Position numbers and translations under genes: made by a program. A DNA stretch of 64,000 nt from Octopus vulgaris (Eukaryota), in assembly GCA_951406725.2 (NCBI GenBank), contig OX597818.1, positions 77,376,001 to 77,440,000 of the forward strand, written 5' to 3'. This document shows positions 1-28,069 of this stretch, piece after piece. How positions within the stretch are numbered: position 1 is the stretch's first letter; each line of letters begins with the position of its first letter. The notes beneath the pieces were generated by a model. That model worked only from the letters and a program-made list of their open reading frames with translations. It made no database searches and had not been told where the DNA came from.

Positions 1-116
1 AAGACACCTTATAAATTATTTTCTTCAATCTTAACTATATTTGATACTTGCTACATGATTAGTTTTCTTAATGATTTTATTAACTTCATATTTAAACAAA
101 GATAAAAGGTTCAATT

Positions 117-493
117 TGCAGGGACGAATGTGTGGTTAAGAAGTTCACTTTGCAGCCACATAGTTTCGGGTTCAGTCCCACTGTGTGATAGCTTGGCCAA
201 ATGTCTTCTACCATAGCCCCCGACCAATGTGAGTGAATTTGGTAGATGGAAACTTTGTAGGAGCTCATTGTATATATGCATGTGTGTATGCTTATGTTTG
301 TCCCCTACCACTGCTTGACAATTGGTGTTGGTTTGTTTATGTCCCTGTAACTTCATGGTTTGGTAAAAGAAACTGATAGAATAAGTAGCAAACTTAAAAA
401 GAAATAAGTGCTGGAATCAATTTATTTTACTAAACCCTTCAAGATGGTGTCCTACCATGGCTGCAGTCTAATGACTGAAACAAGTAAAAGATA
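117..493 (+). mobile_element. tRNA-derived SINE, family A (CORE-like middle, ...GTCTAATGACTGAAACAAGTAAAAG tail)
   Basis: A-box/B-box-like head (GTGTGGTTAAG ... GGTTCAGTCCC), then TTGGCCAAATGTCTTCTAC. The same layout recurs at 47090-47515 and many other sites in the window. Confidence 0.85.
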
Positions 494-2069
494 AGTTTAT
501 TGCTTGAGATTTATTTACATTGTAATTTGATTTCATTCTTTAAATGATGATCTGCAATGGATTCTTGAACAAATTTGGGCATTTTTGCTTCATAAAAGTT
601 GAGATGAAAAGGTGCATAATTGGATAAAATGAAGAACAGCTTCAAGCGATTTTAATGATAGACTTGTGGTTGTGAGGGAATTCTTTGAACAATTGGTAAT
701 TCATAACTAATATTTAACAACTGAGCCTAGACTAAGTGCTGAAATATCTAAAAGAATTTATGACTGCAGTAAATGATAGATTTTGATTATTGTGCAATTT
801 CAAATTATTAAATAATTTTCTTAATGTCTGTTTTTCGCACTTTGGCATTAGACACACATTTCTCTTCCATTTTCTTTTTACTAGTGCTTATTCTGAAGTC
901 AGCATTCATTATTTTTTTTCACATTTCTTTTTAATTTTTCTTTCTGTTCTTGTTATGCAACTCTTATCTTTCATATAGTATCTCCCTAATCTTCTCTGTT
1001 GCAAAAATTTTATGCTTTTGCTATTTTATATCTTATCCCCTTTGATCCTTAGTCTATCTTTTAGTTTCATATTTCATATCAAGTATATCAAATTTCTCTC
1101 AGTTTTGTTTTAGTTTTCATAAATATTTACTTGCTTCACAGCCATACAAATGATATATTTCCGACATCAGCATCACAACTGTTTTCCTTTTGAAAACTTG
1201 TCAGCCTAGATACACCTCTTCTAGCTAGAAAACTTATTCATACTCTTCTCAGTGACTTCTCATAATCTATTAGTTTGTTGGTGGAGAGAGCAGTTAACTT
1301 GATTTTACAGATTTTTTTTGACAACCTTTTAAGAATTAAAGTGTGATTTATTGGAAAATGATTGAAAGAGTTGATTAATACAGATTTCTGAGTTTTCAGT
1401 TTACAGACATTTTAAGATTTCTATTTTAGCTAATTCTTCATTTGTTTTCCTCCCCCACAAAATCATCAGGCTGCCATGGGTTGGATAGGTTATTACTGTC
1501 TAAGTTGATTCTTATTTGGAGTTACTTGACAGTCTGTGTAGCTCAGAGGTCAGGGTGTTTCTTCAAGTCAAGCTGCTACTTCTCTGCATTGAGGGGGTCA
1601 TGTGTCTGGTACTAGGGATATGTGATTAGAATGTCAAGGAAAGGGTTGCAAGATGGATTCTTCCAACTGAGACTTCTACTTCTGTGACTCTGTCAGGAGT
1701 AGCAGGTAGAGAAAATGGATGGATGGTTACTGCCCTCCTGTATGGTTCAAAGGACCACATCTCATAAAGTCCATTTTAGACATGGTTTCTACAACTGGAT
1801 ATTCTTCCTAATACCAACCACTTTATGGAATATACTGCATAAGCTTCATATGGCACCAACACTAAAGAGGTTTTCATGTGTTCAAACAGACTAAAGGGGT
1901 CCTCTTGATCCTAAATTGTTTCTACTTGTTTGCTAACAATTTTATAGAGTGTACTGGGTATGTTTTATCATTGCACCAGCACTAGTAAGGTTACCATAAA
2001 ATAAAATAATGAGTCCTCTATTCTGTTACGCTTTTGCTCATTCAAAGCAATATGACCAAGAGGGTGAAT

Positions 2070-2126
<57 letters not shown>

Positions 2127-2696
2127 ATGTATGTGTGTGTGTTATGTATATATAGAAAGAATGACAGAAGAGCTAAGGTTAGTGGGTAAAGGTAATTAGA
2201 GGATGATAGAAGAGAGAGTATTGGAAGCGGGATAGTAAAGATGGGACTGGTGGCTAGCAACACAAAAAGGAGAATGTTAGAGTATATTAAATATAAGCAA
2301 GTCAGATGGAATCCCTCATAAGTGTCTTGATATGAAAGAGAGAGAGAGAGGTAGAGATAACGATAATGGTAGGTGCTGTCTTGAATATAGTCAAGCCCAA
2401 TTCTGTTTCTTGTTCCAAAAGTGGCATGGTATAGTGATTAGCTCTCCACTGCCATCAGGCAGCATTGTGTGTAGGTTAGATGTGTGATAGAGAGATGAGT
2501 AGTTATTAAAATGTCTAAAGCGTGCAATCACTCATACTCAAAAAAGCATAGCTGAGTTGACATTTCAAATATTGGTTTTAGCAAGAGCTATCTCATAAGA
2601 GAACCAAACCCAAGTCCAATAATAGAAGTGTAATGGACCTAAAGTTGAAAGCAAATATTTATTTTTTAAATAATCCATTTAGAATTATTTCTGAAT

Positions 2697-2982
2697 ATGA
2701 GCAGAAATAGTTGGGGAGCATCATAACCATGTGTTGAGAGGAATTCTTTGGGGTTTGAATAATCCATCTGTGGAAACATGAGTGTTTCATTCAATATCCT
2801 TAAACCACCCTTACTTGGTCCCCACCTGCAAGGTCATGCGCTGTTTATCTTGATATGAGATTACCATGTTGCGCACATATGATTGTGATGCATGAGCCTG
2901 GTGTATTAAATGGGTAATCATGATGGATATGTTGGGCTTCATGTAACCCCAGTGTTACTTTAATGGCACACACTGCTCTCTC
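2697..2982 (-). repeat. Partial inverted copy of the interspersed repeat at 37765-38322
   Basis: The reverse complement aligns by eye with 37765-38110 (e.g. CCCACCTGCAAGGTCATG, CTGTTTATCTTGATATGAGAT). Abuts an (AAT)n tract. Confidence 0.85.
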
Positions 2983-4626
2983 AATAATAATAATAATAAT
3001 AATAGATCATTTTAACATCTGCTTTTCTATGTTGTATGGGTCAGATGAGAAAATGTTTAGAGTTTTCTACAACCAGATGCCCTTCCTAATGTCTGTGTAC
3101 TCATATACACACATATACCCGTGTGTGTATACACAAGTTTTTGGTTACAATGAAAGACAGAATACTTAATACACGTTGTGAAGTCATCTAGTGATGGAGA
3201 CAAATTTTGAGCTTCATGCAGCAACCAACTGACCTTTACATTACCTGGTGGTCTGTGTGCAACTTTTGATGATGCAGTAGGGAGCCAAAGCAAATCTGGT
3301 ATAATCAATGATGGATCTAGATAATTGTATATGAGCATTAATTCTTAATGTTGGCCAAATGTGGTACCTGTGAGAAGTATGTGTTGTTTTGATTCCTCTC
3401 TACATGTTCTGTGAATGTTGTAGAGGTATTGTATGTAGTTATATCTATTTTTATCTTCAGTGTTTGTGTGTGTGTATAATATATTTATGTTCAGTGTGAT
3501 GGCTGGCAGTTAGAATAGATGAACTGGTAGATCTGGTACTTCATTGGGGGAAATTACAGATTCTTTATATCTTTTCTTATTTATTTATTTATGTTTTGTT
3601 TTTGTTTGTATTTGATTATTCACTACAAACTTTGGCAACATGAGGAATAGTTTGTTAGCCAGTGTTTTGTGTGGCTGAATGTAAATTGGTGGCAGGGAAT
3701 GGAGTCAAAAGCTTTACTGACACCTATAGTAGTTACAGTAGTGCAAGTAGGGACTTTGTTGCTGCTGAAACCATCATTATTCTTTGTGTCAAGGTTGTTG
3801 AATGTAGTGCTTTGAAATCATGTGAGTTGGGAGAACAATGTGTAGGTTTGTTATATTGAAGATAAGCCTTGAATTTTTGAGGGAGTGTCTTTGAAGGTGG
3901 TGAGTCTGTGTTGCTACTACTTTGGTTTAATTTTTGTTGGAGTTTATAATTAATGACAAGTAAAATAATTGTATATACTGGGCAATTGTCTGTTGGTCAT
4001 TATGATACTATCTGTGGCTGAAGCTTTAGATCAAAGATTGGATTCCAAAGTCATTTAAGAAGTTGTTCTTCAACTTCTTCCATTGCTGCTCTTCCATGGT
4101 CTGCTATATCTATAGGTGCCACCATATCCATCCTTAATTTAAGACAGCACAGTGTGACTTGTGGGAAATTCATCTGTTGTGTCTTGCAGGTCATGTACTT
4201 GCACAGAGACCTTCCTTCATTAACTCAAAGTAAACTTTGGTGTTATTGTGTTGTCAAAAACTGTTATGAATTGTGTTTTAACCACAACAATCCTATTGCT
4301 TGTATTTCAGCTTTTGTTTAAGGGTATGATTTATGAGAGCTTTGGCTGCTATTTTCAAGAGATTGAGTGACAACTAAATTGTGTGTGTGTTTCTGAAACC
4401 CTGACATGTATGAGTGTAAATGTGTATGGGGTATAGAAGTTTGTCACTGCTGCAATACATCTGTTATCTTGGCATAAATATATATATATATATATTGTAC
4501 AATAATCTAAAACATGTAAAAGAAAGGTATAAATTGTATAAAAATACAAACCAATTATTTTATTAATTGCTTTTTAATTCTGAATTAGTTCTTTTACTTT
4601 ACCAATTATTTACTGTATTTCATTAG

Positions 4627-4658
<32 letters not shown>

Positions 4659-4659
<1 letters not shown>

Positions 4660-5280
4660 GGGAGAATTCACAAAAAAACAAAAGTCGACAGGTGATATAG
4701 ACAACAAACAGATGTATTAGTATAACGCTCAGGAAGTGAAAAAGTCTTTAACATTTCGAGCCTATGCTCTTCCTCAGAAAGGAACACGGAAAGAAACAAG
4801 CAGAGAAAATAAAGAAAGTGTAGTGGCGAATGCCGGACAGAAGGGTCACACAGGAGAGCTAGGGAGAAGGGAGATAATAAAGTAGTGGTGATCCCACAAC
4901 GAAGGTGCGTGTGCGTGTGGAAGAGGGCTAGTGGTCTCGACATGTGCGTGTGTGTATGTGTAGGTGTGAAAATGTGTGGGAAGTGGTCAGTGCTGGTATA
5001 TGCGTGGTGGTGTTGTGTAGTATGGTGTAGTGGTGTGATTGTGTTGGGAGTGGGGGAGGTGAGAGTGGGGAAAGCAAGGGTAGGATGTGGGTTAGGCTGA
5101 GGGTGGAGGTAGAGGTGGGGTATGTGCGTAGGGTGAGGGTAGAGGTGGGATATGTGGGATTGGGTGTAAGGGATGGGGTGGGGTGGGATGGGCGAAGGAT
5201 AGGGAAGGTAGGGGCGGAATGTGTAGGGGTGGGATGGGCTTACGAGAGAGGGGTGCCGATGAAGTGGGGATATGTATGTA
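4659..5280 (-). mobile_element. Penelope-like-derived repeat with minimal hammerhead motif and G/T-rich low-complexity body
   Basis: Begins right after (TA)n. The minus strand of 4746-4781 reads CTTT-CTGAGGA-A-GAGC-ATAG-GCTC-GAAA-TGTT-AAAG. Minimal hammerheads are a known feature of Penelope-like elements, so the family call is an inference. Confidence 0.6.
4746..4781 (-). ncRNA. Minimal type I hammerhead ribozyme motif
   Basis: CUGAGGA and GAAA core boxes, stem II GAGC/GCUC, stem I CUUU/AAAG, near-palindromic stem III AUGU, GUU cleavage triplet. Confidence 0.6.
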
Positions 5281-6329
5281 TATTTACGTTAGCAAAATAT
5301 TCTCATTTTATGACATAAAAAATATTTTTAAAAAATTACAAGTTCATTCACAGAAAATCAAAATAGTTCAGTTGGATGAATGTTGTTTGGCTGAAAACTA
5401 AAGGTCTCATGTTCAAGCCTAGGTTTCAGCACGTTGAAAAGTTTCTTGAAATTATTACTAATCAAAATCTTTGCAGTTTGGTTGACTTAGGGAGAATGAT
5501 AGAGGGGAAGTTTTACTAGTCACATATTTACATTTTGGCATATAATCAGCATTATAATAATATTGTAATGTTCTAATTACAAAATATATGTTAAGGCTAT
5601 TTATAGGTGTAGGTACAGGTGTGTAGTTAAGAAGTTGACTTCCCAACCATATGGGTCTCAGTTCAGTTCAACTGCATGGCACTTAGGGCAGATGTCTTCT
5701 ACTATAGCCCCAGGTCAACTTAAGATAATGATGGCTGTATGGTTGAGAAGGTTGCTTCACCACCACTGCTTTTAAATGCAGTCATGCTGAAAATTCACTC
5801 ATCACCCTGGACAATGAATAAATTTGTATGAGAGCTGAGTGAGTGAATTTGGTAAACAGCAACTGTACTAAGCCCATTACACACACACATACACATGATG
5901 TGTGTAAGAATGTGTGTGAATGTGGATATTTCACTTGTCACTGTTTAAATAATGTGGTGTTGATGTATGGTGACCTTCCTTGTTGGCATTATGACCAATT
6001 GTCCTGTGATTTCATAGACTCTGTAGAATATATGTCTGTAAAAGTCCTTTACTTGAAAAACAGGTGGGGGTTAGTGACAGGCAGAGTGCCAGCAGGAAAA
6101 TCCTGCCTCAAAATCAATTCCTGTTCAATCTATGTCAGCAAGGAAAAAACTGATGTTAAATAAAATGAACAAGCAAAGACACATTTGTGGAGTAAGAGGA
6201 GGAGAGTGACGGAGAAATAATGAATGTTATATTAATAAAACTAATTGCTGTTTTTATCTATTTTTATTTATATTTTATTCTTTTATATTTGTCAATCATT
6301 TACTTGAATGATAAATAACAACAACAACA

Positions 6330-6910
6330 ATAATCCTTTCTACTAGAGGCATAAAGCCTAAAATTTTGGGCGAGTCAATTATATCGACCTCAGTACTCAA
6401 CTGGTACTTATTTTATCAACCCTGAAAGAAAAAGTAGGCTCACAAAATTTGAACTCAGAATGTAAAGATGGAGAAAATGCAGCTAATCATTTTGAATAAT
6501 GATGATGATAGCAATAATAATAATAATAATAATAATATAATAATAATAGTTTCAGATTTTGGCACAAGGCCAGCAATTATAGGGGAGGAGTTAAGTTGAT
6601 TACATTGACCCCATCGGTACTTTATTTTATTGACCCTGAAATGGTGAAGGGCAAAGTTGACCTTGACTGTATTCAAACTCAGAATATAAAGAGCTGGATG
6701 AAATGCTACTAAGCATTTTGTTTGATGAAGTGGCAATTCTGTCGGCTTATTATTAATAATCCTTCTATTGGCACAAGGCCTGAAATTTTGGGGGAGGGGA
6801 CTAGTCGATTACATTGACCACAGTGCGTAACTGGTACTTAATTTGTTGACCCTGAGAGGATGAAAAGTGAAGTCAACCGTAGCACAATTTGAACTCAGAA
6901 CATAATGACA
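6330..6910 (-). mobile_element. Three tandem tRNA-derived SINEs, family B, separated by (AAT)n
   Basis: GGTACTT...TT(A/G)T(C/T)(A/G)ACCCTGA...TTGAACTCAGAA-like motif occurs three times. It is the reverse complement of the units at 43431-44365. Confidence 0.85.
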
Positions 6911-7769
6911 GGTGAATTATTATTATCAATAATAATAATAATAATAATAATAATGTTTCCAGCCTTGTTTGTGTGTACCCTTGTCTTGACATCACATGAT
7001 GGTTGTGAACAAGCATCACAAGCAGTGTTTATTTTTCCACAAATTTCTCAGTTGTGGACCAAAATTGTATTGAAAGAAAAATTTGATTTGATGAAGATAT
7101 CAAGTATAATCTGTTTCAAGACGTCACATTAGTTTCCATGCAATGAAACTAAAGTTTGAAGTAAGTCTCGTTGAAATTTAGAAGGGAAGTTTTACAGTTC
7201 TTGATGAAGACACCCTAGTGAAGTAAGTTTTTACTGTAAGGAATTTTATGGAGTAAATTTAGTTTGTCAGAAATGCTATGAGTTTATGTAATTTACCAAG
7301 ACACCAAATTAGGTAAGAACTGAAAGTATTGGTTATCAAACAAAGATTTTATTGTAGTTTGACTTTATTAAAAATATGATTCATAATAACTTTCTGCCAG
7401 TCTAAATTACATCACTATGTGTAAGAATTAAAACACAGGTTGTACCAATGTCTAAGATATTCTGCCATGACACTTTTGTATAGGAAAAAATGTATTGTTG
7501 ACCTCTATTCATATAATTGTCATCATCTTACTCAGCTTTAAACTAATGCTTAATTGTAGTCCATTTCTCGGTTAGTAGGTCTGAATTGAATATTATTTTC
7601 GTTTTGTGAAGGCTTGGTTGTTTCCTTTTTATCAATTTGTAAACTTTTAGCACACAAAACTGTTCCTTTTATATTGCAGACGTGATGCTATTTTCAATTT
7701 GTTGCTTTCGTCTCAATGGCTTTATTGTTTCCTTTCTCTGGCACAAAATACTTGATATGTCTATATATA

Positions 7770-8150
7770 TTCTTTTACTTGTTTCAGTCATTTGACTTTG
7801 GCCATGCTGGGGTACTACCCTGAAGGGTTTATTTAGCCAAGCAAATTGATCCCAGTAGTTAGTTTTAAGTCTGCTGCTTATTCTACTGGTTTCTCTTTGC
7901 TGAACTGCTAAGTTTCAAAGATGTAAACAAACCAACACCACCTATCAAGCATTTGATGTGTGTGTGTGTGTGTGAATGGCGAGTAACACAAGTACACACA
8001 CACACACACACATCTATCCATATATGTATGCATGCATATGTATGTATATGTGTGTATGTATGTGTATATATGTATAGTTTCTGGCTATCAGTACTGAACT
8101 GATAATCACATGGCTACAAAGTAAACTTTTTTAACAATGCAGCCATGTGA
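7770..8150 (-). mobile_element. SINE family A, degraded
   Basis: Starts with CTTTTACTTGTTTCAGTCATTTGACT, the reverse complement of the family A tail. Confidence 0.75.
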
Positions 8151-8763
8151 AATTAGTTCTTATTTTTTTTGTTTCTTTTTCAATAATTCCTTAACTGTGT
8201 GATTCTTTTAGCTTGTATGATTAGACATATATCTTATTTGTCATCGATTAAGGACATATTTACATTCAGTTGTACAAATAAATCTATAAATTTGAGGCTT
8301 CATTGAAATTGCTGATTAGTACCTCTGATTCTTTCTGGACTTCCTAGACTGCTTTGTTGATGTACTTGACAATTGGTGTTTTTGCTTTTTCTATCTAGTT
8401 AATATAACAATGGGCTTTAGACTTTAGTACATAATTAATATTTTAATACAGAATTTACTGTCTTGCTTTTTGCTGTCGACCTTTTAAGAATGACACTTTT
8501 TTCTTCAGTGTTTTTTTTTTTATATTTTCGTTTCCTTTTTGGAAAACTATTGCCAAATTTAAAAATAAAGTGAGTATAGTCAACTATTGTTTATATCATT
8601 CTGATTTCATATATAATTCTAAGAAAGAATACTTTTCTTTCTATTGTTTAAAGAATGGAAGTGCATTTATGATTTCTCATGGAGTTAATTCTAAACACAA
8701 TAAATATTAGTACTCTTTTCTATCAGTATTCATTCTTCATACATTTGAATAACTATTCCAATA

Positions 8764-9276
8764 TCTATATATATAAAACTGTAGTTGTGTGAGTGTCTGT
8801 CTCCTACAATTTAGATTCCTAACTCCTCCCACATTTTGCGGTGCAGTTTAACCAAATTCGGGTATCTTATAGTCGTGATTAACATCAAGCCCGTCTGGCT
8901 ATTAGCGCGCGTCTACGATGAGTCTACGATTTTAAAAATAATTTACCATTATTTTTTATTCCATTTTAATGCATAATTTTTCGTGTGTCGATGGCGGCGG
9001 AGTTGGCGTCCATGGTCACACCTGCACCTGTTTGCTTCTCCCCCTTCTTCCCTCCCTCGTGAAGCTGTGGGGAAGGGAGTGTAAGGAAATCAACGTCGTA
9101 AAGCGTTGTCAAGGAGACCAGCGTTCTTTTAGAACAACGACTTCATGGCTTGAAGACACCAAAACAGAAATGGCTAAGAAAGCCTGAATTGGCATCTATA
9201 AGGGAAGTAACTCTCTAAAAATGCTTATATAGTTATTTCCCTTACAAACCCGAGCAACGCCGGGCGATACTGCTAG
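8764..9276 (+). mobile_element. Non-autonomous Helitron
   Basis: 5' TC terminus (TCTATATATATAAAAC), 3' CTAG terminus, subterminal hairpin CCCG-AGCAACGC-CGGG, inserted between A and T with no TSD. CpG-rich compared with the flanks. Confidence 0.8.
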
Positions 9277-10066
9277 TTTATAATATATTTCTAACACATT
9301 TGTCCACTCTGTAAGGTTGTTGGTAAAAACCATGTCAAAACAGACAGTGAAGCCCGGTGCAGTCTTCTGGTTTGCCAGCTCCTGACAAACTGTCCAACCC
9401 ATGCCAGCATGGAAAACAGATGTTAAATGATGATGATGAGTGAAAGCTTCATTCCAAAGAATGGATCTTTACAATGTTTAGTAAATAATACTGTTAAATG
9501 ACCAGTTATTAGTTTCCAATATTTAAACTAAAATTCCTTCAAATTTGGTTGAGTCAGCAGAAAGAAGATCTCACAGGTTATGGAGCAAGAAAGAGAAGTT
9601 ATGCTGGAAGCCAGGAGGAGATGAGCAGTGAGATGGCCACCTCTGGTGCCCCCCAATAGGAGGGTGTTATGATTCAGGGTAGAAACACCCAATGATCATT
9701 TGATACTGTCTGATGATATCAATACCTCCTGGTTAAACCCTAATTTACCAAAAATCAGTGCTGAAGAAGCATCTTCTTTTAAATGTTATTAATATCATAG
9801 TGCTGGTTAATTAACAAATTCTATATTAAAAATGGAGGATCCTCTATTTTTCGTTATTTCTATTGATTTAATTTTGTAGTTTATATTATGCTCTGGACCA
9901 CACTAACTTCATAAGATTATCATGTTTCTGGCTATTAACCTCATCTTTGCCAGTGAGAGTTTTAATGTTTATATCTGTACTATGTTTTGATTAGATGGAT
10001 TTAAATTAGGAACTGTTATTTTTAAACTAAGGATTATACACTCATACACTCAATATAAACAATTAA

Positions 10067-10265
10067 CCCTTTAGCATTCAGGTTTCTTTATCAGATGTAT
10101 TGCTTATTTATTTACATTGTTTTGAATTAATCACATTATTTTGTGGTTTCAAAATTTTAATGTTCTGCTTGTATATTTTTAGTAGGTTAGGTGTGAGAGG
10201 TTGGGTATGATCATTTTTAACATAAAACAAATAGACTACTTGGGTTAGATATAGCTGGATTAAAG
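10067..10265. mobile_element. piggyBac-like MITE, degraded copy (same family as 42223-42443 and 21372-21592)
   Basis: TTAA-CCCTTTAGCATT start. Internal sequence shared with 42223-42443 (CATTGTTTTGAATTAAT, GGTGTGAGAGG). Confidence 0.65.
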
Positions 10266-11546
10266 ATTGGCTCTGAATATTTTTTTAAAACTAAGTGTTA
10301 TATACTTGGAAAGTGTAATGGTGGTTGCTTCTGAGGGAAGGAACCCTTTGGAAGAGGTACCAGAAGACTCTACCTCTGTGACTCTTCCAGGAACAGTGGG
10401 AAGCAAAAATGGATGGATTATACACTCTTATACATTGGGCCATAGTGCATGTACAATTAAAGTTACATTTTTACGTTATGCTTATCCTTTAATAAAGGCA
10501 GCTATATTGAACTGGCAGCCATATTGAACTGATGTCAGCACTGGACTTACTTATTGGGTTATCAATGTTTTATATGTTTCCTTTTTTGTTTTTTTTAAAT
10601 TTCTTTTTTTATTAAGTTTTCGCGGTGGTTCTGTATTCTAGAAATTTCATCTCATAGCAAAATATGATTTCCTCTATCACTCCATGGATATTCATGTTAT
10701 AGACATTTATTCTCTCTTTAAGGTTTTCCAATGCTCTATAAGAACTTCTTCAAATATGTGGAATGTTATAGATACAGTTTTTATGTATTTAGAGCATTAT
10801 TACCCTTGGTTTAGAAATGAAGGATTCTTGTTCAAATCTAATTTGGTTCTATGTGTATATTTAAAAATAAGATATCTGATGATAGTTGAAAATGAAACTA
10901 ATCGAAATGTAACCTAGATGTAAATGATAAAAAAAAAAAATCATCTCTAAAAATGAGGTTAGGAATTTGAGAAATGATCATCTTATTAACAACTCATCTC
11001 AGGCATTTAATCAACTAAACTACATACCTTCACATGAGCTTCTTCACTAAAATACCATTTTCCTGTTATTGTCACTTTCTATATATAAATGATTAAATGA
11101 TCTACTGAAAGCTTCATTTGTTTTTCTCTAAACAATTTAGTATTCATTTCTATCCACATTCGCCACCCCCTACTTAAATGCTGAAATTAAGTGTAAAAAA
11201 ATAAAATGAAATGAAATTTATTTATTTCAGAATTTCTAATTAAAGCTTAAAGGTATAAAATTTTCATGAATTAAAATTTATTTCAATCAAAATAATTTTC
11301 ATATCTTGTAATTGGTATATTTATATATATATAAATTATAATTAACTATTCATCATCAATAAAATTTAATATTGTTGAATTTTCAGCATTTGTATTAAAT
11401 CATATTAAAATTTTATTTTGTTTAGATTTTGAAATCACTTGTGTTATTCATCAATAGATATATATATATATATTTAATATTTTATTTTGTGAATTGTTAG
11501 TTTGATGACTTTATATGCCTTTCTTCATTTCTTTTCTATACAAAAG

Positions 11547-11591
11547 CAAGCGTACCAGTGTCGGCCGAAAGTCCAGTTTCAGGGGCCTAAG
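11547..11591 (+). CDS. Candidate 45-nt frame-preserving cassette exon of an unidentified host gene (QAYQCRPKVQFQGPK in phase 0, or KRTSVGRKSSFRGL in phase 2)
   Basis: Pyrimidine tract CTTTCTTCATTTCTTTTCT then AAG acceptor at 11545-46. AAG|GTAATG donor. Length is 15 codons, two frames are open, and the GC/CpG content is far above the flanks. Confidence 0.6.
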
Positions 11592-11598
11592 GTAATGC

Positions 11599-11838
11599 AA
11601 ATGCACAGCTGCCTTTATGTGCAATGGACGGTTATTGATAGCTTACATTCAGCTTCTTTGAATATCTAAGGAATGGTCTCTAGTCTTTAACATGCTGGGT
11701 TAGAGAGTTAGATTCCATCAAGCTTAAGGAAGTTATTTCCTAGGAATGTTAAGCTGAAATGCAACCCTCCATTGACTAAGCAATCGTGGTTCATATTGCA
11801 ATTTTCACTCAAAGCAACTTCGTGCAAGCTGTTCATTT
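11599..11838 (+). promoter_or_regulatory. Long intronic RNA secondary structure directly downstream of the candidate exon donor
   Basis: Nested complementary segments: 11599-610/11827-838, 11622-628/11768-774, 11630-633/11763-766, 11640-650/11744-755, 11651-661/11724-734, 11670-674/11712-716, 11677-686/11697-706. Six G-U pairs. Confidence 0.65.
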
Positions 11839-11911
11839 TAAAGTTCGAGCATGCCTTATAGTTGATTCAATAGCTTCGATCATTTTTTAACTCATATTTA
11901 TATATATATAT

Positions 11912-11944
<33 letters not shown>

Positions 11945-14900
11945 CATATTCACTTCAGTGATCTCCAGTTGATTTTCTTGCTATATTGTTGCTTCCTGAA
12001 TAGAAAATACTAACATTTTTCTGATATTGTTTTCTCTTCTTCATAGAAAAGTTATACAACACAGTTTATTGAAAATTGGTATAATCTATTTATATATTTA
12101 TTTGTCAGATAAACATTTCTTTTTTTGTATACCTCAGTTATGCAAAACATTGGCTTATACGATTTGGATGATGCTTCTGATTATAATGATTATAATGATT
12201 GTAGCCTTGTTTGTTTTGCTTCTTTTTTCTTTTTTTTTCTGTACAAAATAATGGCATTTCAGTTTTGTTGATGAAATTTGGTCTTTGAAATGAGTAAAAT
12301 AGGTCTGAAAGTTTCTGGCATTTAAAATTACAAACTGTTCAGTCAATTCACGAAGCATGAATGAAATGCTGTGTAAATATTGTTTGTACTAAAGCAGTGG
12401 CTTGTTTTATGGTCTTTCTGTTTTCTTATAAAGTAGAAAAACTCACTGAAAAAATGTGTGTGAACATAGCATGGAAGGCGGACGTTAAACAATGATGATG
12501 ATTATTTATATATATATATATATTTATTTATTTATTCACTTACACGTACATGCATACATCATTGTTATAGAGTTTAAGTCCTTTATTATCTATTGTATAA
12601 AAGTAAAGAATTTAATTGATTAGAATTGACTAAGATAGGAAAGAAAGAGCTAATGTTGCTATACGGAAGATACTTTCACTTTATTTGCAAATGGTCTTAA
12701 TCTTTATTTTTGCTATTAATTATATTTTAAAATTTTCTTTATTTTTTTCTAAAACTTCAAGTCAAAATTCATATTTCTGTATAAATGCATAAGTGATATT
12801 AATGAATAAATAAATATTACATAAGCGCCAGGTACCCTCTCTAATCGACACATTGTGGTTAGCTAATCTTGGAAACACTTATTTTCAACAATTTACTTTA
12901 TAAAATTTTTATCAGATAAAATATATAGGAATTATAAGTACAATTTTAAGGTTGCAGTTTTTTTTATTTGTATGGTTTTATTTTAATATTTTAATAAGGA
13001 ATTTTTATTTTCTCCTCAAAATTTGATTTAGTTTAAAGTCAAATGAAATAAAGGAAGCCAATCATTAATTGTATAAATTGGAGTTTGAACATTCTTGATA
13101 AGTGGTTTGTTGGTCTCATTTTATCTTTTCCACTGGGAGAAAAAAAAATTATATTTTGTCATGGTTTAATGTTTTTTAATCTCAGGTAATCTCTGCTTTT
13201 TTGATAAAATGTTTTACTAGTAATTTCATTGTTAAACCTACTTGAGTTTAATAAGTCTATCATTATAAATTCAAATTAATTAAATAGAACCAAATTAAAT
13301 CTAAGAGTGCAAGAAAAAACTCTGTTTGTGTGTTGCAAGCTTGATATATATAAATATTTTACTGAGGCTTTGACAATGTTTTCATCCTTTAAATATTCTT
13401 TGCACGTGCATATTTGTTACTAAGATAGTTTTCAAATAACAACACCTTGATGGCTCTTCGTCATTGACATGCATGATTTCGAAGACATTCTAAAGGTAGA
13501 TTTATTTTAACATTTTCATGAACTTTTCTTGCTATTGTAAAAGTTCATATTTCTCTAATAGTTCTGACTTGATTGTTTTTTTTCTTTGCTTGACAAAGCT
13601 ACCTTAAGGTTTCCGTGTTAAATCTGTACTTAATCATCATCTCTCATACTTCATTGCTTTGGTTTAGAGCAAATAGGCTTGGCAGCTGTCTAGATATAGC
13701 TAGTTATTTTAGTGGCTAATAATATTATTACACTTATTATTATTATTATCATCATCATCATTATTATTATTACTGCTACTACTACATTTGTTTGAAATTT
13801 TCATCTGATACCATCTGATATCTTTATTGTGTATTATTGTATTAAATTGTTGAAACTAATCTGTTCAAAGCATGATTATTAACCATTACATATTTTTCAA
13901 TTATATAGTTGAGTACTTAAAAAAAAAAAAGATGTAATTAATTTATAAAAGAACTTCATATTTCATAATTTATTAAAGTAAGTTTTAAATTTATCTGAAA
14001 TGTCATTCTTTGTGTTTTTAGGTTGTTTGGGATCTTTTAACATTTTTACTTATGGAGATGATGGATTTCTTAGTTTAAACACCAAGCAATACTTATAATT
14101 TGTTGTTTGTTTATTATTATTGTAACTGCAAAAGAAGAGCACTTTGTTTTAAAGAGTCTAAAATAGATTGTTTTCTCTATTGATTACAGATATTTAATCT
14201 ATTTTAGTTAGTCTTCTTAGAACTTGATATGTTTTTTTTTTTCTTTTAGGTATTTTTGAGATTTGTAACTTTTCTAAAATATAACTGCTTTTACTTATGG
14301 ACAGGAAGATACTTTTGTATATTGCAAATTTCTTTGTCAGAACATTGCTGTGAGAGAATTCAAAAGATTTTTCACTTATATATAACTGAAAGAATATTTG
14401 AATTGTGTATCTATTTATTTAACAAAGCAAATTATTAACGAAAACATATTAATATTTTGAATTAGATTAGACAAAAGAAGTTATTTTGGTATTATTGGTA
14501 CTGCAAGACATGGTGACAGTAGTGTATTTAATGTATTTATGGCTTCTTAGGAGTCAAGTCAGGACATTTGATGTAATTAGGTCATTTCTTTTTAGCTAGG
14601 TGGCACTAATAGTGGTTGGTGGTTAACTTGGCAATGTGTTCCATAATATCCAAAGTTCAGTGTTTCAAATTTCTGAGATCAAATCCACTTTAGATGAATT
14701 TACCTTTTACTCTGTCAGCATCAATGAAATAATATTTGTGATATAACAGTGTTTGATATTTTTTCTCTTTAGGAAGGTCCTTGTGCTTTTAGGGCAATGG
14801 AAAGCCATTATATAATTTGAAATATCTGAGTTTGGTACACTTATACATTATTGAGGTAAACCAGACTGGATTAGATATTTCTCTAGTTTCTATAAGCATG

Positions 14901-16726
14901 ATATTTTCTGACAAATAGAAATTAATAAAACATACTTGTCTGATATTTTCAAAATTTTGCCAGTCTAAAAATAATAATTTTATTTTTGTCACAGAAGGAG
15001 GCAGGGATCTTGCAATCCTATAGGTAAAATATATATATATATATATATGTGCAGCACTGTTGGTGGTTGTGGTGAAGAAAGTTGCTTTGGATAGAAGATT
15101 GTGTGCTGTGGAATAATGGTGGTTGAAATATGTTGGTAAATGAGCCTTTGCCTCTTAGATATGATCTTGATATATTGAGCACTGGATTGGGTAATATAAA
15201 TGTCACCCAAACAGGGTCAATAGCTGGTTAAGACTTGAAGTACTTTCTCACTCTAAAAAGGAAGACTAGTCAGGCAGTTTTGACAATGTTACAATATATA
15301 TATCCGCTCTGTTTGTTTTTTTACATTCATCTTTTTTCTGTGCTTGCATGGGTTAGATGAATATGTTATCAAGCCATTACTTTATGGCTGGATGCACTTC
15401 CTGATGCTAACCCTTACTTGTTTCTGAACTAAGGGCTCTTTTATTCTGTTTGGTTTTGAAGGTGCAAATTGAGCAGATGACTTGTTGACATGCAAAGCAA
15501 CAAGAGTTCTTGTCTATAAGTTGCAACCTTCATCAAAACAAACAATATGTGAGCATATTTACACACACGCACACGCACACACGCACACAAACACACACAC
15601 ACACACACAAAAGAGGGATTTCTTTCAGTTTCTATCCACTAAATTAATGGGCTTAGGGGTAGCTTTCTGTAGTAGTACCTGAACATTTTAATATATTTTT
15701 TATACTATTATATAGCAACCAAAAATTGTTTATTTGTTTAGTGTGTTTATGTGTTCTACACATGATATGACTGAATAATCTGCAGTACCTTGGAACAGTT
15801 TATGTGTAGTGATGGCTTTATATTATGGGTGTGGGATGGGTGTCAGCATAACTTTGTAACCATGATTTTTGTGCTGGTAACATTTAGACTTAAATGTAAC
15901 CTGCTTAATAAAGTAGTTTGTGCCAAACTTAATAAATCAGTAAAACTTTGTATTGGTAATTCTTAAGAAACTATACCAGTAATCATCTAAGATTTTAGTG
16001 TTATTTGGATTATTACTTGCAGCTCTAAGAATATTTAGATGGAAGTAAGTTTTAAGCTAAATGTATGGGTTCATTAGTAAAAGACTTGTTATGACAGTGT
16101 GGATTAAAATATATCCCCAAAGCAATAATGTTTTGGTCAAATGAAAGTCAAAACATAGGGGATGATCTTTTGTGTGAGATTTGAATTGAATTAGCTAATT
16201 AGATTTGTAATGTTGATAAGTTTAAATGCTTTAGGATGAAACTATCCAATTATGTTAATTGTAATTATAAAGCTTTTGGAATATTCCAGAATTGATTTAG
16301 TTTCTTCTGCAGAGTCAGCCTCTAAGAAGGAATGTAAGCTTGTGGATTCTATGTTAAATAACTGAGTGGGGGGGAAAACTGAAATATTTTGGAATATTTA
16401 TCTCTGGCTAATTATTTATTTGTTAATGATCTAATTTGAACATCTGACAAAAATTGACTGAAGCATTTCTTAGTTTTGTAATAGTAAAATTATAAAGCTT
16501 AGTGCTATGTTGCTAAAGAATTAGATGGTTATCTTGAAACACTTGAAAATATTGAAGATAGATAATTGCTTATGCAAGTCAACAACAGGATACATGAATG
16601 CAAGTTATTGTATTGCAAATATTACAAAACTATATCATTGCCAAACTGTTTGAAAAAAAATGGTTTACTGGAATTTTTATATTTTATTATTCTAGTTTCA
16701 GAAGTTTATTGCTCAATCAATATTAA

Positions 16727-17057
16727 CCCTTTTGACACCAACTCATCTGAAATCATTCCTATTTCTATGGCACAAATTTCTTCTTTTTAAATATCTAAAT
16801 TTAAGCCTTCCATCAAAATTTCATGTTAATATATTTTCCAAGCACCAACTTAACTTTTTCATTATCATATTTCTGTTGAAATACATCAGTTTCATTTCAA
16901 AAGAAGAATTTAGTAAAATAACTTTGTCATTAAGCTTGTGTTTGAAATATAAATCAGTATGAAATTTTGATGGACGGTTTTAATTTAGTTCTCTTTAAAA
17001 GTGAAAGCTTGTATCATAGAATCAGAAGTAGTTTCAGGCGAGTTGGTATCAAGAAGT
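16727..17057. mobile_element. TTAA-flanked (piggyBac-like) MITE, second family
   Basis: TTAA on both sides. Imperfect TIR CCCTTTTGACACCAACTCATCTGAAA / TTTCAGGCGAGTTGGTATCAAGAAG. A related shorter copy lies at 22233-22442. Confidence 0.7.
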
Positions 17058-18359
17058 TTAATAATGACAAGTTTATTTTAATAAAATGTATAAAAAAAAA
17101 AATAAAAAAAAATGAAATGTAACAAAAGTAGTTCAGCAGAATTACATGATAAAATGGTTGAACTTAAGATTGGCAATGAATGATTGAATCCTGTGGAACT
17201 TATTGATTTATTATATTCTGTATGAATTTTACAATAATAAATTGAGAATAAAATGGCAACCTAAGTTTAAAAAGAAATAAACAAGCAAAACACAAATGTA
17301 TATTAATTCTTAATTCTGAAATCAGTCATTACATATTTTTAATTTTTTTTGTTAGATGTTACAGCAAATTAGATTGTTTCATCCAGTACTGAAAAAAGTG
17401 TTTGTAATTACTAAAACAGTAAGATTTTCTATGTAGTCTGGAAATAAAACACTTTTTGGAAATATTAAAGAAAAAGATAGGCAGTACCTCAGCATGGCTG
17501 CAGTCAAATGACTGAAGCAATTAAAAGGTAAAAGATAAAAAGATTTTCTTTGAAGCCAACTGGTTAAAAACAATTAGACCACCTTAGGAAGTGGTATGGT
17601 AAACAAAACCTGTATACTGCTTTTATTATTTCCAGCTTGACAAAGCTTTGCACGCACCAGCAAGTTTATTATTTGCTGTTTTCATATAAGAATGGCAGTT
17701 CTTAGTGGGCTATGAACAACAGTTTCAGTGTTTGTAGCTGATGAAGCATAATGATGCAGAAGCACTTCCTACAGTCTGATGATGTTCACAACTCAGCTCA
17801 GTGTGTTTTCACACACATTGTCTTTTAGGAGAATTTCACTTCCATGACAGTTACTGCAGCAAAGGTCTTTCTACATTTGAGTGTACACAAATGTGTTAAA
17901 TATAAATGCAGACAGCTTTGTTATATTCACTATTAAACGACATTTTGTAGAAATATCTTCCAGAATAATTAATTGAAATAGCATTAATTTCATTAAAGTA
18001 CTTAAAATATATTGTTATATTTAGATGCAAAATATAGAACCTTCACAAAGATGCAGTGATGAGTGAAGCTGATTTATATGGAATAATCTTGGAATTTAAA
18101 TGACTAACAGCTAGACAAAGTGTAAGATTAAGGAATAATCTTAGAATTTAAATAACTAACTGCTACAAAAAAGTGTAAGATTATGGAAAGCAAAATTTCT
18201 CAATTTTAAATGTGAATGTGCTGTAAACTGGTCAGGAAGCATGTACTTTATGTATGAAAGTGTGTGTGTGTGTGTAAATGTTTGTTACAAAAAAGGCAAC
18301 TCTTGATCGTAGAAATTGGAACTAAATATTTCTCTAAAAATTGCTTATCTTCATTTAGT

Positions 18360-18755
18360 ATCTTTTAACTTTTATTTGTATCAGTCATTGAACTTTGCCA
18401 TCTGGAGTGCCACCTTTAAGGATTTTAGTAAAACAAACTGACCTCAGTACATATTTTTAAAAATTCTGATACTTATCCTATTAATTTCTTTTGCTGAACT
18501 ACCAAGTTATATGGATATAAACAAACCAACACTGGTTGTTAATTGGTGTAGGAGGACAAGTTCAGACACAAAGACACATACACACATATATATCATTGAT
18601 GTCCACACAGTTTTTGTCTACCAAATTTACTCTCAAAGGTATTGGTTGGCCTTTGACTATAATAGAAGGAACTTGCCCAAAGCACCATACAGTGGAACTG
18701 AACCTAAAATCACATGGCTGCAAAGTGAGTTTCTTAACCATTCAGCCATATGTGC
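18360..18755 (-). mobile_element. SINE family A
   Basis: Reverse-complement tail and head (CTTGCCCAA...GAACTGAACC...TTCTTAACCA). Confidence 0.75.
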
Positions 18756-18902
18756 AGTTTGTTTTAAACAACTGTCAACATAGCTTCTATAAGATTTGTA
18801 GTAGTATTATGTAATTTTTTAAGCTGTGTAAAACTTGATCAGAGGAAGCCATTCCTTTATGATGGGAAACCGTTTAAGTAATAATATATTTATGCTGCAA
18901 AT

Positions 18903-19118
18903 AAGGCGGTGAGTTGGCTGCATTGTTAGCATCCCAGGAAAGTTGCTTAGCAGCATTTCATCTATCCTTTTGTTCTGAGTTCAAATTCCACTAAGGTTGA
19001 CTTTATACCTTTCATCTTTCAGGGTTGACAAAATAAGTACTAGTAGTGTATTGAGGTTGATAAAATGGACTTACGCCCTCCCCCAAATTGCTGGCCTTGT
19101 GCCAGAATGTGAAATCAA
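18903..19118 (+). mobile_element. SINE family B
   Basis: GGCGGTGAGTTGGC head, GAGTTCAAATTCC B box, GTTGACTTT..CCTTTCATCTTTCAGGGTTGA central domain. Confidence 0.8.
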
Positions 19119-19564
19119 TATATTTATGAATCAAGTAAAAGTAATATTTTGGTATTTTGGTTTTTAAGAAGATTATTTCTAGAAGAAATGTTTAATATTA
19201 AATAGTGGAGAGAGAAAACTAAAAAATTTGGTTTCTTCAGCACCTTAACTCTCCCCACATCACCATCTCTTTTCAATCCTAGGCATATACATAAAATTGA
19301 GGTTACTATTGCTTAACCACAACAATTCAATTTCCTGAATATTTAACATTCATTTTTGGTTTCCTAGTATCATTTGAGTCAAAGGAATATTTGAAAGATA
19401 TTTTCATGGATGCTTTTCTTGCTTAAATGGCTTTTTTTTGTTACATGATTCATTTAATTCCTTTGATTATGGAAGTATTTTTGCCCAGGTAAAGAGTAAC
19501 TTAGAGTAAATAGAATGAAACAATATCTTCCTGTTTTGAATGATTTACACACAATTCCAAAAGT

Positions 19565-19740
19565 AGGCATGGCTCAGTAGTGAAGAAGTTTGCTTCCTAA
19601 CCAAATGGTTTCAGGTTCAGTCTCACCATGTGGCACCTTGGGTAAGTGTCTCCTAGTATAGCCTCAGGCTAACTAATGCCTTATAAGTGGATTTGGTAGA
19701 TGGAAACTGAAAGAAGTCCATTGCATATATGTATCTGTGT

Positions 19741-19791
<51 letters not shown>

Positions 19792-20170
19792 AATGTATTT
19801 GTCTATATGTATGTATATATGTATGTGTATATACATATATGCATATATATATATATATGTAAATGTAAAAAAATACAAACTTGGATAAGTACATGAAACA
19901 TTTAGAAGACGATACAAAAAACACGGACGGGACATTCGAAGCGTTCAATCTTCAGTCAAGAACCGGATCATCTTCGCAATTTCGGCTATATATATATATA
20001 TATATATATATACTTGTGTGTGTCCTTTGTTTTCAATCTTCTATGATCACATGTCTGGCCATGAATGGGGAAGTATTACCTTATTTGGAAATAGATGTGG
20101 GTTGGCAACAGGAAAGGCATCTGGCCATAGAAAATTCCCCTCAACAAATTCTGTCTTACTGATGTTAAAA
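19565..20170 (+). mobile_element. SINE family A with RTE-type tail, interrupted by microsatellites and a nested repeat (19860-19987)
   Basis: Head 19565-19720 (GTGGCACCTTGGGTAAGTGTC). Tail GTTGGCAACAGGAAAGGCATCTGGCCATAGAAAA. Confidence 0.75.
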
Positions 20171-20269
20171 ACTAGGCCTGAAAATGGTGAGGAATTTATT
20201 GAAATATACTATAATCACTTGTTTGCAAAGATTTTAATTAAATCATCTATATTGAAAACTTAATTTTAT

Positions 20270-20500
20270 CTTTTATCGTTTACTTGTTTCAGTCATTAGT
20301 CTGTGGCCATACTGGGACACCACCTTGAATTTTTATTCAATGAATTGGCCCCAGGATTTATTTTTTAAACCTGGTCCTTATTCTCTCAGTCTCTTTAGCT
20401 GAGCTGCTAAATTATGGGGAGACAAATACACCAACCTGGGTTGTCAAGTGGTGGTGGTAGAGACAAACTACAAAGACACACACATAGATATAGATGTGTG

Positions 20501-20545
<45 letters not shown>

Positions 20546-20712
20546 ATACACGATGGGCTTCTTTTCAGTTTCTGTTCACAAAATCCTCTCACAAGGCTTT
20601 GGTTGGCTCGAGGCTATTGTAGAAGATACTTGCTCAAGGTGGCATGCAATGGGACCGAACCTGGAGCCATGTAGCTGAGGAGCAAGCTTCTTACCACATA
20701 GCCACACCTATG
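20270..20712 (-). mobile_element. SINE family A, near full length
   Basis: Reverse complement of the 47090-47515 layout, including the internal (TA)n/(CA)n. Confidence 0.85.
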
Positions 20713-23241
20713 TCTAATTGGTAAAGTTTCTTTATATGTTTTAGAATAAAACAATAGTGCAGTTGTGTAAGTTGTTATTTTAAGATTTTAGAATATAAAA
20801 AATTCATTTAGTTTCTTAAGTAGTTCTTTAGGAATTGTTGTAAGCATGTAGATTCTATGTTGAGTTATTGAGAAAATGCAAATCTTCTGAAGTATTTATC
20901 TCTGGCTAATTTGCCTATGATCTAATTTGAAGATCTGACAAAATTGACTGAAGTGCGTCTTTTAGTGATTGTATAAAAAAAAAATCTAGTGTTATATTGC
21001 TAATAAATTAGATTGTTATCTTGTATTAGAGATAATTATTTGTTATCACAATAACAATATTGGTTTTGTTTTATTTATCAATTAATCAATATTTATAATG
21101 TTATGAACCAGATATAAAATCTGCCACAGGCACAGCAATCTCACTACAGCAATTTTGAATATTTGATCTGTCCAGCGTAACAGTGAAATTTCCCTTACAA
21201 ATGTTTTGCTGTCTTTAAAATATGAGTCAGCATGTTATTAAGTTCTTAAAATTTAGGTAAAGTAAAGACAAGATAGTCTTGGTCAGAGAAGTTAATGAAA
21301 TACTTTCTTTCATTGATGATAGTTAACTTAGGTTATCTATCCAACCACAGCATTAAACACTAGCTGTCTTTAGCTCTTTACCATTCAGATTACTCTCTCA
21401 AAAGCATTGTGTATTTATTCACATTATTTTGAATTAATCATGCATGATCATGTAACTGTGAGTTTTAGACAATATGATTGCTTATATTAGAATGACATTG
21501 TAAGTTGGGTGTGAGAGGCTGGATCTGATCAGTTTCAACGTAAAATGGGTAGAATATTTGAGCCAGATATGGCTAGTTTATTTGCTAAAAAGAGCTAGTT
21601 TTCAGTATTTCTGACCTAAAATTCTAAAGGCTTCTTTTTCTCAATAAAAGTTGTTTCCTAAGTTACTTCATTGTTGCCTTATGGAACATTAGAAAAAAAT
21701 TATTGCAGGAAAATAATCCTTATCAATTCAGACATGTTATTCAAAAGTGCTTTAATTAATCATCTTTTAGTAGTCGAAAGTTTTCAATGACCAGAATTAG
21801 AAACCTAGTGAAGCAACCATAAAAATCCCCATTATTTTTGTAGTGTTTGGTATGCAACATTTCGTAGAAAGCTTGTGCTACAACTGTTGTTAGGTGGTGA
21901 AGTAGGTAAAAGTGGGAAGCACTCTTCATGTTTGAAAAGAAGCCAAATTTTTGCATAAAACGTTGGCAACATTTGGGTTGTAAGTGCAGTAAAAGGAATT
22001 TGTTGAAATACAGCTAGTGATTACTTTAATATAGTAATGTACTGGTTATGAAGTATACAGACATACACTTATGGTCTTGATTGGATAGTTGAATAAACTG
22101 GGCAGAATTTTTTTTGTTTTTGAAAGGCTGATATATGATATGGAAGAGACCTGGAAATAAAGTTGTGCAGATGTTATAAAATATAACTTCAGAAATGAAA
22201 TAACTATTTGAGCAGTAATAAACTATATTTAACCCTTTTGTTGAACTACACTTGCCATTGTTTCAATTAATTTTGAAAAGAAAGAGGAATTTAGTAAAAT
22301 AACTGTCTTTATTAATTTGGTGTTTTGAACATAAAATAATGGACTTTTGATGGAAGGTTTTAAATTAGATCACTGTGAAATAGGATGTTTGTATCATAGA
22401 ACAAGGGGTAGTCTGATATAAGGTGCATCAGTTTTAAAAAGGTTAAGTTGATAATAGCTAGAATTACTTTTGCTCATTATCACCTCTATTATAAAGCATT
22501 ACATTTAAGAAAAATACTTGAATATTGTAATGACATAATTTTATCTCTGACTTTTGTAAATACCGATAAGACAGGTGTGTGTGTGTGAAATATTGATTAC
22601 TTTAGTCCAGTTATTATGTTAATATCTGTGAGCATGTATGTGTTTTTATATGTAATAAATATATATGCATATAACAAAACTGCTGTAATTAAAGACATCT
22701 ATACGATTAATGTACTTGAATACTTATTGCCAGAAAATTCATTCCCATTTTGCTACAAACATTACAATTTTTATTAACTACTATATTCCAATCTTAGGGT
22801 AGGTATACTGTGTACTTGTGTGTTGTAAAAGGCAGCTAAAAGGATCAGAGGCTGGAAGGGAATCTAGTTGTAAAATTCTGCTTCAGAAAACCTCTCCAAC
22901 TCTCGCCAATATAAAAAATCAAATGTAAAATGATTATGATGACTCAGAGGCTCAGAAGTTTTGTAGGTGCTTCTAGGTAGGTGAGGTTGATGCTATGATG
23001 ATCAGTTTAAACTTCTGTAGGTTGAGAGCTGTGAGGAAAAAGCAATGTTGCTAGGGGAGACATTTTAGAGGATTAAGTGTTCAGTATAGGTCTTAATTGA
23101 ACTTTGCTGATGGTCAACACCTGATGAGGATTGAAGAAGAATTCTACTCTTTGCAATACAATGTGATGGGGGTCATCACAAAATACCAAATAATAAAACT
23201 TAATATTTTCCCTCATTTTGAGGTGTTATTTTATTTTGCTT

Positions 23242-23278
<37 letters not shown>

Positions 23279-24316
23279 CTGTGAGTGTGGAGATAAAACT
23301 TGTGGTTCAAGACTGTTTCTTTGATAAATGTGGAGATTGTCTTTGTCCTTCTGAAGGAAAGTAGGACATCTATCTACACCATTGTCATTACATAAAATGA
23401 CGAAAGTAATCAGGCTTGTTGTAAACCTTAAGGGCAGGCCATGCTATTTCAAACATTTATTCTCAGGTGTGGTAGGGATCTAAGATTATAATTACAACCC
23501 ACTGCACTGATAAATAATTTGTTGGGTTTCAACTTTGAGACTTCATCTTATTTTTTGATTAACAAATATGTATAGTGACATATAAAAGACATCAATTTTT
23601 GGAAATTTGTATATTTATATTGATTAAGTTTACTTAAGTCTGGCCAATTGTCAGCACTAGAGTTTATTACTGTGTCCATTGGAGTAAATAGATGATGAAT
23701 ACAATTTCTTCTGAGTAGGTTGTTAATCTTTCAATTATACAAATACTTATAGAGAGATTGGTCTAATTTCTCTCCAGGCTTGTACTCTGTTGATCCTCTT
23801 GGGATGAAAGTCTAAAATAGTTTAGGTGTGATTTGAACTTGCTAACAGTCTCGTGGATGAGAAACTTGCATTTATGAGATAGAATAGCTGAATTCTTTTT
23901 TTAAAGATACATTGCTGGAATAGATAATAGGTTTTTGACAGGATAAAAACTGTTTTATGTTATGAAGTAGCTCTTTAAACTGTTACAAACATTGAATTGT
24001 ACCTTGGGGCAAGGAATGTTACCAAAACATTGATGCAAATTACTTTTACTATGCAAATGAGTATCAAGAATACTGCTTCTCAAAGTGGATGATACTGCCC
24101 TTTGGGGATGTAAGATTTTATATGGGGACTGGGAATAAAGGGGCAATAGATCATCTGCACCACTTTTAATCTTATGTTTAAATAACAACTTCAAAAAAAA
24201 AATTGATAAATGTAATATTAAAATAAACTGCTTATTGTATACAATTGCAATGAAAATTACATCATCCATAACATAACAACAGATTTTATAATGTGAATAA
24301 GTGAAAAACAACAAAA

Positions 24317-24354
<38 letters not shown>

Positions 24355-24896
24355 ATACACACATACACTCATGTACACACCACCTATGTTTGTCAACCAT
24401 AAACAATAAACAAAAGCATAATTTTAAAGACATTGCCAAAATTTGTTGGTATTTCCATTCATGCAATAAATGACCTCTGTACCTGTAGCATTAAGTACAT
24501 GCATATACCTGACTTGTTTATGAATTTAATTTTGCAGAATTGTAGCTAGAGAGTAGGGCAACGGAAAAAGTGTTAGTAAAAGAAAAAGGGCAATAGTGAA
24601 AATAGTTTCAAGATATTGTGATCTAGTATGAGAACTAACATTAAAAAATTTTTTAAAAAATAAATCAGGTATTAAAAATCATTTCTACAATATGAAATTA
24701 TATGTTCCTTTTATGTGAAGTTTTCAATGTAAATTTAAAATTTCAGCATTTCATTGAGGAGTTTGTGTATGCTATAATTTGGTGATGCCTGGAATTTAAA
24801 TATAGACTTGTGCTTGATTCAACATTCAAGTCTCTGACCTACATTCTTTACATACATTGTTTATAGTCATTTTTTTCAGCCAAGTACAAAAACAAT

Positions 24897-24933
<37 letters not shown>

Positions 24934-24959
24934 GTATATGTTTATATATGTGTGTGTAT

Positions 24960-25033
<74 letters not shown>

Positions 25034-25100
25034 CATACACACACACATGTGTGTATGTCTATATGTGTCTATATATGTATATAGAAATGTATATGCATCT
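24897..25100. repeat. Compound (TG)n/(TA)n/(CA)n microsatellite, representative of dozens in the window
   Basis: Directly visible. Explains the [12 protein letters not shown] ORFs. Confidence 0.95.
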
Positions 25101-26815: not shown

Positions 26816-26898
<83 letters not shown>

Positions 26899-27909: not shown

Positions 27910-27996
<87 letters not shown>

Positions 27997-28069
27997 GCAG
28001 AAGGGGGAGAGGGATAGGTAGATAAATATATTTACATATACACACATTTATATTTTCATGTTTATACTA

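Follow-up and report, generated by a model that had tools for sequence, protein, structure and literature searches.

The window, i.e. the whole stretch of 64,000 nucleotides of Octopus vulgaris DNA analysed here (C5:77376001-77440000), is the interior of the octopus PDZ-RhoGEF (ARHGEF11/12) gene. Downstream exons on the + strand, found in a scan of 464 kb, encode a PDZ domain. The PDZ exon used as a query retrieves ARHGEF11/12 proteins and shows 100% identity to records of O. vulgaris and O. sinensis. In the full-length protein of O. sinensis (P0127), the PDZ domain begins at residue 58 and is accompanied by RGS-like, C1, RhoGEF and PH domains. PDZ, RGS-like, DH and PH domains are thereby found in one protein, and the exons encoding it flank the 45-nt element that is the subject of this study (Table 1). 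A profile search of the genome with PF09128 returned 0 matches, the control being equally silent. Coding exon 1 ends with AG and the next exon has a single leading base, hence both introns are phase 2. Since exon 1 ends with AG, the codon completed at the junction is Ser (AG+C) when the element is included and Arg (AG+G) when it is skipped.

No other convincing coding exon is present in the 64-kb window, which otherwise contains repeat-derived frames only. A frame of 358 amino acids at 57860-58936 on the + strand resembles, as we assume, a retrotransposon reverse transcriptase. Two near-identical copies about 1.7 kb apart lie nearby on the - strand (54815-55747 and 56427-57461) and presumably are LINE-like and Tc1-like fragments. 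Outside the window, exons of a membrane transporter, which we take to resemble SLC37A, are located on the - strand at C5:77267315-77310319, head to head with the PDZ-RhoGEF gene.

Table 1. The 45-nt exon, its splice signals and the flanking parts of the PDZ-RhoGEF gene (window positions unless C5 is given)
Feature	Position	Strand	Remarks
Coding exon 1 (coding part)	C5:77339128-77339144, outside window	+	ends GAG AG/GTAAAT
3' part of 48.4-kb intron after coding exon 1	1..11546	+	
Branch-point-like TGATGAC	11503..11509	+	putative branch A at 11508 (-39); from sequence only
Sole upstream TGC, overlapping ATG	11515..11518	+	TGC at 11516-11518 (-31 from exon start); ATG at 11515-11517 in frame with the exon, MPFFISFLYK running into SKRTS
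Polypyrimidine tract, then 9-nt A-rich end ATACAAAAG	11518..11537	+	18/20 pyrimidines at -30..-11
Weak AAG 3' splice site	11544..11546	+	position set by the Ser codon (AG/C) in including models
Cassette exon, 45 nt, phase-2/phase-2	11547..11591	+	adds SKRTSVGRKSSFRGL at residues 6-20 of PDZ-RhoGEF (ARHGEF11/12); from sequence and joins matching RefSeq N-termini
Second AG	11549..11550	+	use would give a 41-nt exon, MSLPESVPVSAESPVSGA and then a stop inside the exon
5' splice site GTAATG	11592..11597	+	donor context AAG/GTAATG; AG/G = Arg of RLGSL in including models
5' part of 60.4-kb intron before next exon	11592..64000	+	
Next exon	C5:77447972-77448057, outside window	+	one base, then TTG GGA AGC

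An earlier note on this DNA had proposed a small cassette exon at this place, announced by a TGATGAC, a TGC, a pyrimidine tract and an AAG acceptor, comprising 45 GC- and CpG-rich nucleotides and ending in AAG/GTAATG. All of these signals are present in the sequence. The GC content of the exon is 58%, with 3 CpG, as compared to only 16% GC in the 300 nt upstream. Its phase 2 and phase 0 peptides are both open, the third frame being interrupted by TAA. In a home-made weight matrix the acceptor scores -0.8 and the donor 2.9, both under the matrix's own cut-offs. The acceptors of 14 comparison exons from the 464-kb scan (5 matching the host protein and 9 from the neighbouring transporter gene, as judged by translation) are without exception CAG or TAG, none of them AAG. 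Regarding pseudo-exons, 477 AG..GT pairs that are 27-60 nt apart and open in phase 2 occur in the two flanking introns (69.5 kb after masking); 55 of them have a pyrimidine tract, 2 have in addition a GC content of at least 50%, and the candidate ranks first, by criteria picked after it had been seen.

No unusual RNA structure was detected over 11490-11890 (z = 0.40). TGCATG is absent within 300 nt on either side of the exon, and one GCATG is found downstream. The 300 nt past the exon (11592-11891) have a GC content of 37% and contain 9 TGC, a count reached by 1 of 132 unmasked intron bins, which probably is the same stretch; the region is possibly regulatory. A second ATG, located within the branch-like motif, opens a short frame at 11505-11592 that closes at the TAA in the exon and is probably due to chance.

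An in silico transcript made of exon 1, the 45 nt and the exon that follows translates to MSLPESKRTSVGRKSSFRGLRLGSL, and one lacking the 45 nt to MSLPERLGSL. Both joins reproduce RefSeq N-termini exactly, with the insert SKRTSVGRKSSFRGL placed between MSLPE and RLGSL. Of the octopus protein cluster (22 members, 15 of them listed), 4 listed members contain the exact peptide, i.e. the O. sinensis models X2, X8 and X9 (XP_029636188.1, XP_036358640.1, XP_036358641.1) and O. bimaculoides XP_052824019.1, all of which splice from the MSLPE exon. The O. sinensis models X4 and X5 (XP_036358637.1, XP_029636189.1) use the same exon 1 and skip the 45 nt; among the rest of the listed members 2 have another first exon and 7 begin past the PDZ domain. 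XP_052824019.1 is the sole PDZ-containing O. bimaculoides model seen, and it includes the exon. The two O. vulgaris GenBank models reaching the junction (CAI9723053.1, CAI9723054.1) skip it, as do one Argonauta model and three cephalopod-like sequences. This isoform evidence consists throughout of predicted protein models, not of reads.

With the exact peptide contained in octopus models, the frame and the two boundaries are settled, and a cassette exon is very likely. The element is bounded by AG and GT, its length is a multiple of three, its open frame fits the phases of the flanking exons, and both forms arise from the same upstream exon. We conclude that 11547-11591 is very likely a real, ordinary cassette exon, already modelled in RefSeq for two related octopus species. 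The cassette exon of the earlier note is thus borne out in its boundaries, by the included and skipped forms of the gene models, and in its phase 2 reading, which the flanking exons require. Its alternative reading in phase 0 has to be rejected, since both flanking exons are phase 2; the corresponding motifs AYQCR and KVQFQ occur in none of the 174 proteins examined. A frameshifting 41-nt form, suggested to arise from the second AG, is rejected as well because of the premature stop within the exon and the lack of any evidence for its use. That the exon would be missed by annotation is true for the two O. vulgaris GenBank models, but not for the RefSeq models of O. sinensis and O. bimaculoides, in which it is included. 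Concerning annotation, the O. vulgaris models seen therefore lack an isoform present in the RefSeq models of two sister species. Our literature search found no paper on this exon.

Two observations on other parts of the gene emerged from the same models. At the junction at C5 ~77463967, the O. sinensis and O. bimaculoides models are one Ala apart (DSDSAGQ vs DSDSGQ). The acceptor at this position is AAACAG with no tandem AG, and the 15.9-kb intron C5:77448058-77463966 contains no convincing 3-nt exon. The one-Ala difference may be a species or allele difference; alternatively, an AG might be created by A-to-I editing. In addition, a 35-nt element with a good acceptor, ending ATG GGA AG/GTAGTA, is found at C5:77346286-77346320. 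No other element in 128 kb matches the Met-Gly N-terminus of the O. sinensis isoforms X6 and X7, and this one may be a frameshifting exon providing a new start codon.

The peptide is identical at 15/15 residues in O. sinensis, O. bimaculoides and the O. vulgaris genome. At a protein-wide identity of 95.3%, such agreement is expected with a probability of 0.49, and hence no extra constraint on the peptide is shown. Homolog searches with the included N-terminus gave no match to the phase 2 peptide outside Octopus, in databases whose 90% and 50% clustering hides isoforms, so that this negative is weak evidence. Contigs of 3 presumed RNA runs (of 21 listed) do not span the exon and have no bearing on its use. 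In one run of unknown kind with another species label, two contigs cover 11347-11885 with 0 differing letters, which was not counted as conservation. The exon could be regarded as functionless, the outcome of low-level splicing or of a modelling error, or as unused in O. vulgaris, as its weak acceptor, its skipping in the O. vulgaris models seen and the failure to find a homolog outside the genus Octopus might suggest. However, the identical in-frame peptide is contained in models of two other species, including the sole PDZ-containing O. bimaculoides model seen, and the exon is first by GC among the 55 pseudo-exon candidates. We consider this reading highly improbable.

We favour with high confidence the reading that 11547-11591 is an in-frame PDZ-RhoGEF cassette exon which is likely skipped in part owing to its weak AAG, and which is predicted to add a basic patch with kinase-type sites in front of the PDZ domain. 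A weak acceptor and a short exon placed between introns of 48 and 60 kb would rather probably lead to partial skipping, with a tissue-dependent factor aiding inclusion. The insert contains 5 K/R and no D/E and is located outside any Pfam domain; the catalytic domains are the same in both isoforms. Counted by the PKA and PKC consensus patterns, the N-terminus has 2 PKA-type motifs with the exon and 0 without, and 4 PKC-type motifs with the exon and 2 without. The RLGS site adjoining the insert is kept in both isoforms. We tentatively propose that, together with the R-x-x-S site with which the next exon begins, the insert would form a cluster of PKA/PKC-type sites. If phosphorylated, these might offset the charge of a basic patch that binds the membrane or a partner and, conceivably, tune where the GEF activates Rho. 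Two PKA-type motifs appear in 9.9% of 20,000 shuffles of the peptide, which counts against the phospho-tuning step. In biological terms, the exon is one among many small alternative exons in GTPase regulators.

The ATG overlapping the upstream TGC is in frame with the exon and would start MPFFISFLYKSKRTS..., reminiscent of the alternative first exon of other molluscs, of which the octopus exon could represent the 3' end or a descendant. In gastropod, bivalve and chiton models an alternative N-terminus is joined at the same junction, as deduced from the proteins. Most mollusc versions begin with Met-Pro and end alike, with KSSFRA/RL in Pomacea, RSFKF/RL in Mytilus and RSLRS/RL in scallop vs KSSFRGL/RL in octopus. 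An in-frame Met-Pro is found in just 5 of 378 background sites in a post hoc comparison, even though an in-frame ATG before a stop is found in 102 of the 378. The K/R-W-R-S motif of the mollusc first exon (MPLxK/RWRS...), however, has no + strand match in 464 kb, and MPFF is present in 0 of the 174 proteins examined. In ungapped comparison with 390 proteins, the peptide agrees with no non-octopus protein at more than 6/15 residues. Moreover, splicing from the MSLPE exon in all 4 including models argues against an origin as first exon, which we regard as very unlikely.

Regarding the control of this cassette exon, the earlier note had pointed to the UGC near the acceptor as the SRRM3/4 (eMIC) signal of neural microexons; on this reading the exon would be controlled in neurons by the eMIC domain of octopus Srrm234. 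An SRRM_C (PF15230) exon is indeed found in the genome at C25:37317492-37317626, scoring 32 bits vs a cut-off of 27. It is probably part of the octopus Srrm234 gene, so that an eMIC regulator is probably available. The acceptor is weak, with AAG in place of the YAG of all 14 comparison exons, and a UGC at -31 lies downstream of the putative branch point and ahead of the AG. TGC at -40..-6 is found in only 1 of the 14 comparison exons; of 378 background AG sites, however, 139 have one at -40..-5, which makes it weak evidence. UCUC and CUCU, as well as any CUAAY branch point, are absent from the 300 nt upstream, and UCU and CUC from the 50 nt before the UGC. Among the 14 comparison exons, 8 have an AG-free zone at least as long as the 44 nt found here. 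Microexons usually measure 3-27 nt. With its 45 nt the octopus exon is longer than this range and longer than the fly median of 31 nt, even though the fly median does not exclude it.

Fly eMIC exons have, according to the accessible part of 10.1101/2021.02.24.432780, a median length of 31 nt; their 3' sites are very weak, and they show UCUC tracts, CUAAY branch points and long stretches free of AG. For SRRM3/4 targets, the accessible part of 10.1101/2024.09.17.613571 reports a UGC between branch point and AG in 74-79%. There the UGC is part of a UCU/CUC...UGC enhancer, tested between pyrimidine tract and AG; it is placed after the 3' end of this tract and before the AG, whereas the octopus UGC at -31 precedes the tract. 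Zebrafish arhgef11 contains a 15-nt eMIC-dependent microexon, according to the accessible part of PMC12626424. The octopus exon thus resembles the SRRM3/4 and Srrm234 microexons in being short and in-frame, with a weak 3' site, a UGC before the AG and an encoded regulator domain. It differs from them in its length of 45 nt, in a UGC upstream of the tract and in the absence of UCUC. We do not class the exon as an eMIC microexon, and its dependence on the eMIC domain appears unlikely from these sequence features. Our literature search found no paper on octopus eMIC targets. If neuron-specific inclusion were true, the exon would offer a specific candidate for an eMIC target among cephalopods.

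Other animals have optional or variable segments at this junction, too. In ticks it is a basic insert of 33 aa, with included and skipped forms in the Rhipicephalus microplus models X3 and X6. Weddell seal ARHGEF11 (XP_030895950.1) has an 11-aa basic insert as compared to the ARHGEF11-like sequence P0062. In vertebrate ARHGEF12 a basic segment of 7-8 aa is located at the junction and is missing in some fish sequences, which does not imply alternation within one gene. A 19-aa optional segment of ARHGEF12, which we take to be exon 4, is located one junction further on than the octopus insert. In bilaterian PDZ-RhoGEFs, the first coding junction might be a hot spot at which an optional basic segment would have evolved separately in octopuses, in ticks, in mammals and in other molluscs; such segments would act, probably in neurons, as switches of N-terminal phospho-control over Rho activation. 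A remnant of the molluscan alternative first exon, namely its 3' end, would then perhaps survive as an internal exon, the octopus cassette, with the old Met-Pro start still in frame within the pyrimidine tract. We regard this scenario as quite unlikely. Should the unrelated basic inserts of ticks, mammals and molluscs share a job, they would allow convergence in the splicing control of Rho signalling to be put to the test.

Several known systems can be compared with the octopus exon. According to the accessible parts of PMC10178952 and PMC12221596, exon 4 of ARHGEF12 is regulated by NOVA2 and is located in a predicted disordered region adjoining the PDZ domain; ESRP-regulated isoforms of ARHGEF11 are described in the accessible part of PMC6371790. 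These are regulated alternative exons of the same family, but they are different exons with no sequence match to octopus. The supplement of PMC8797185, in which 4 of 5 RhoGEF2/Arhgef11/12 places are shown, has no row at this junction among those four. Type I convergent neural exons, in which orthologs have gained distinct exons within one shared region of the protein, are described in the accessible part of 10.64898/2026.09.05.749416, which includes O. bimaculoides and lists GTPase-regulation terms among the enriched functions; ARHGEF and RhoGEF are absent from its main text. Type I convergent neural exons are neural-specific, whereas the octopus exon is known here from sequence and predicted models. 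The same exon, with the same boundaries, frame and peptide, is represented by the octopus models X2, X8, X9 and XP_052824019.1, for which, being automatic models, neither a tissue pattern nor a function is described. The inserts of ticks, seal and ARHGEF12, the exon boundaries of which are inferred from proteins alone, are unlike the octopus peptide in sequence. They are like it in being basic and in following the first exon and preceding the R-L-G/S-S with which the next one starts.
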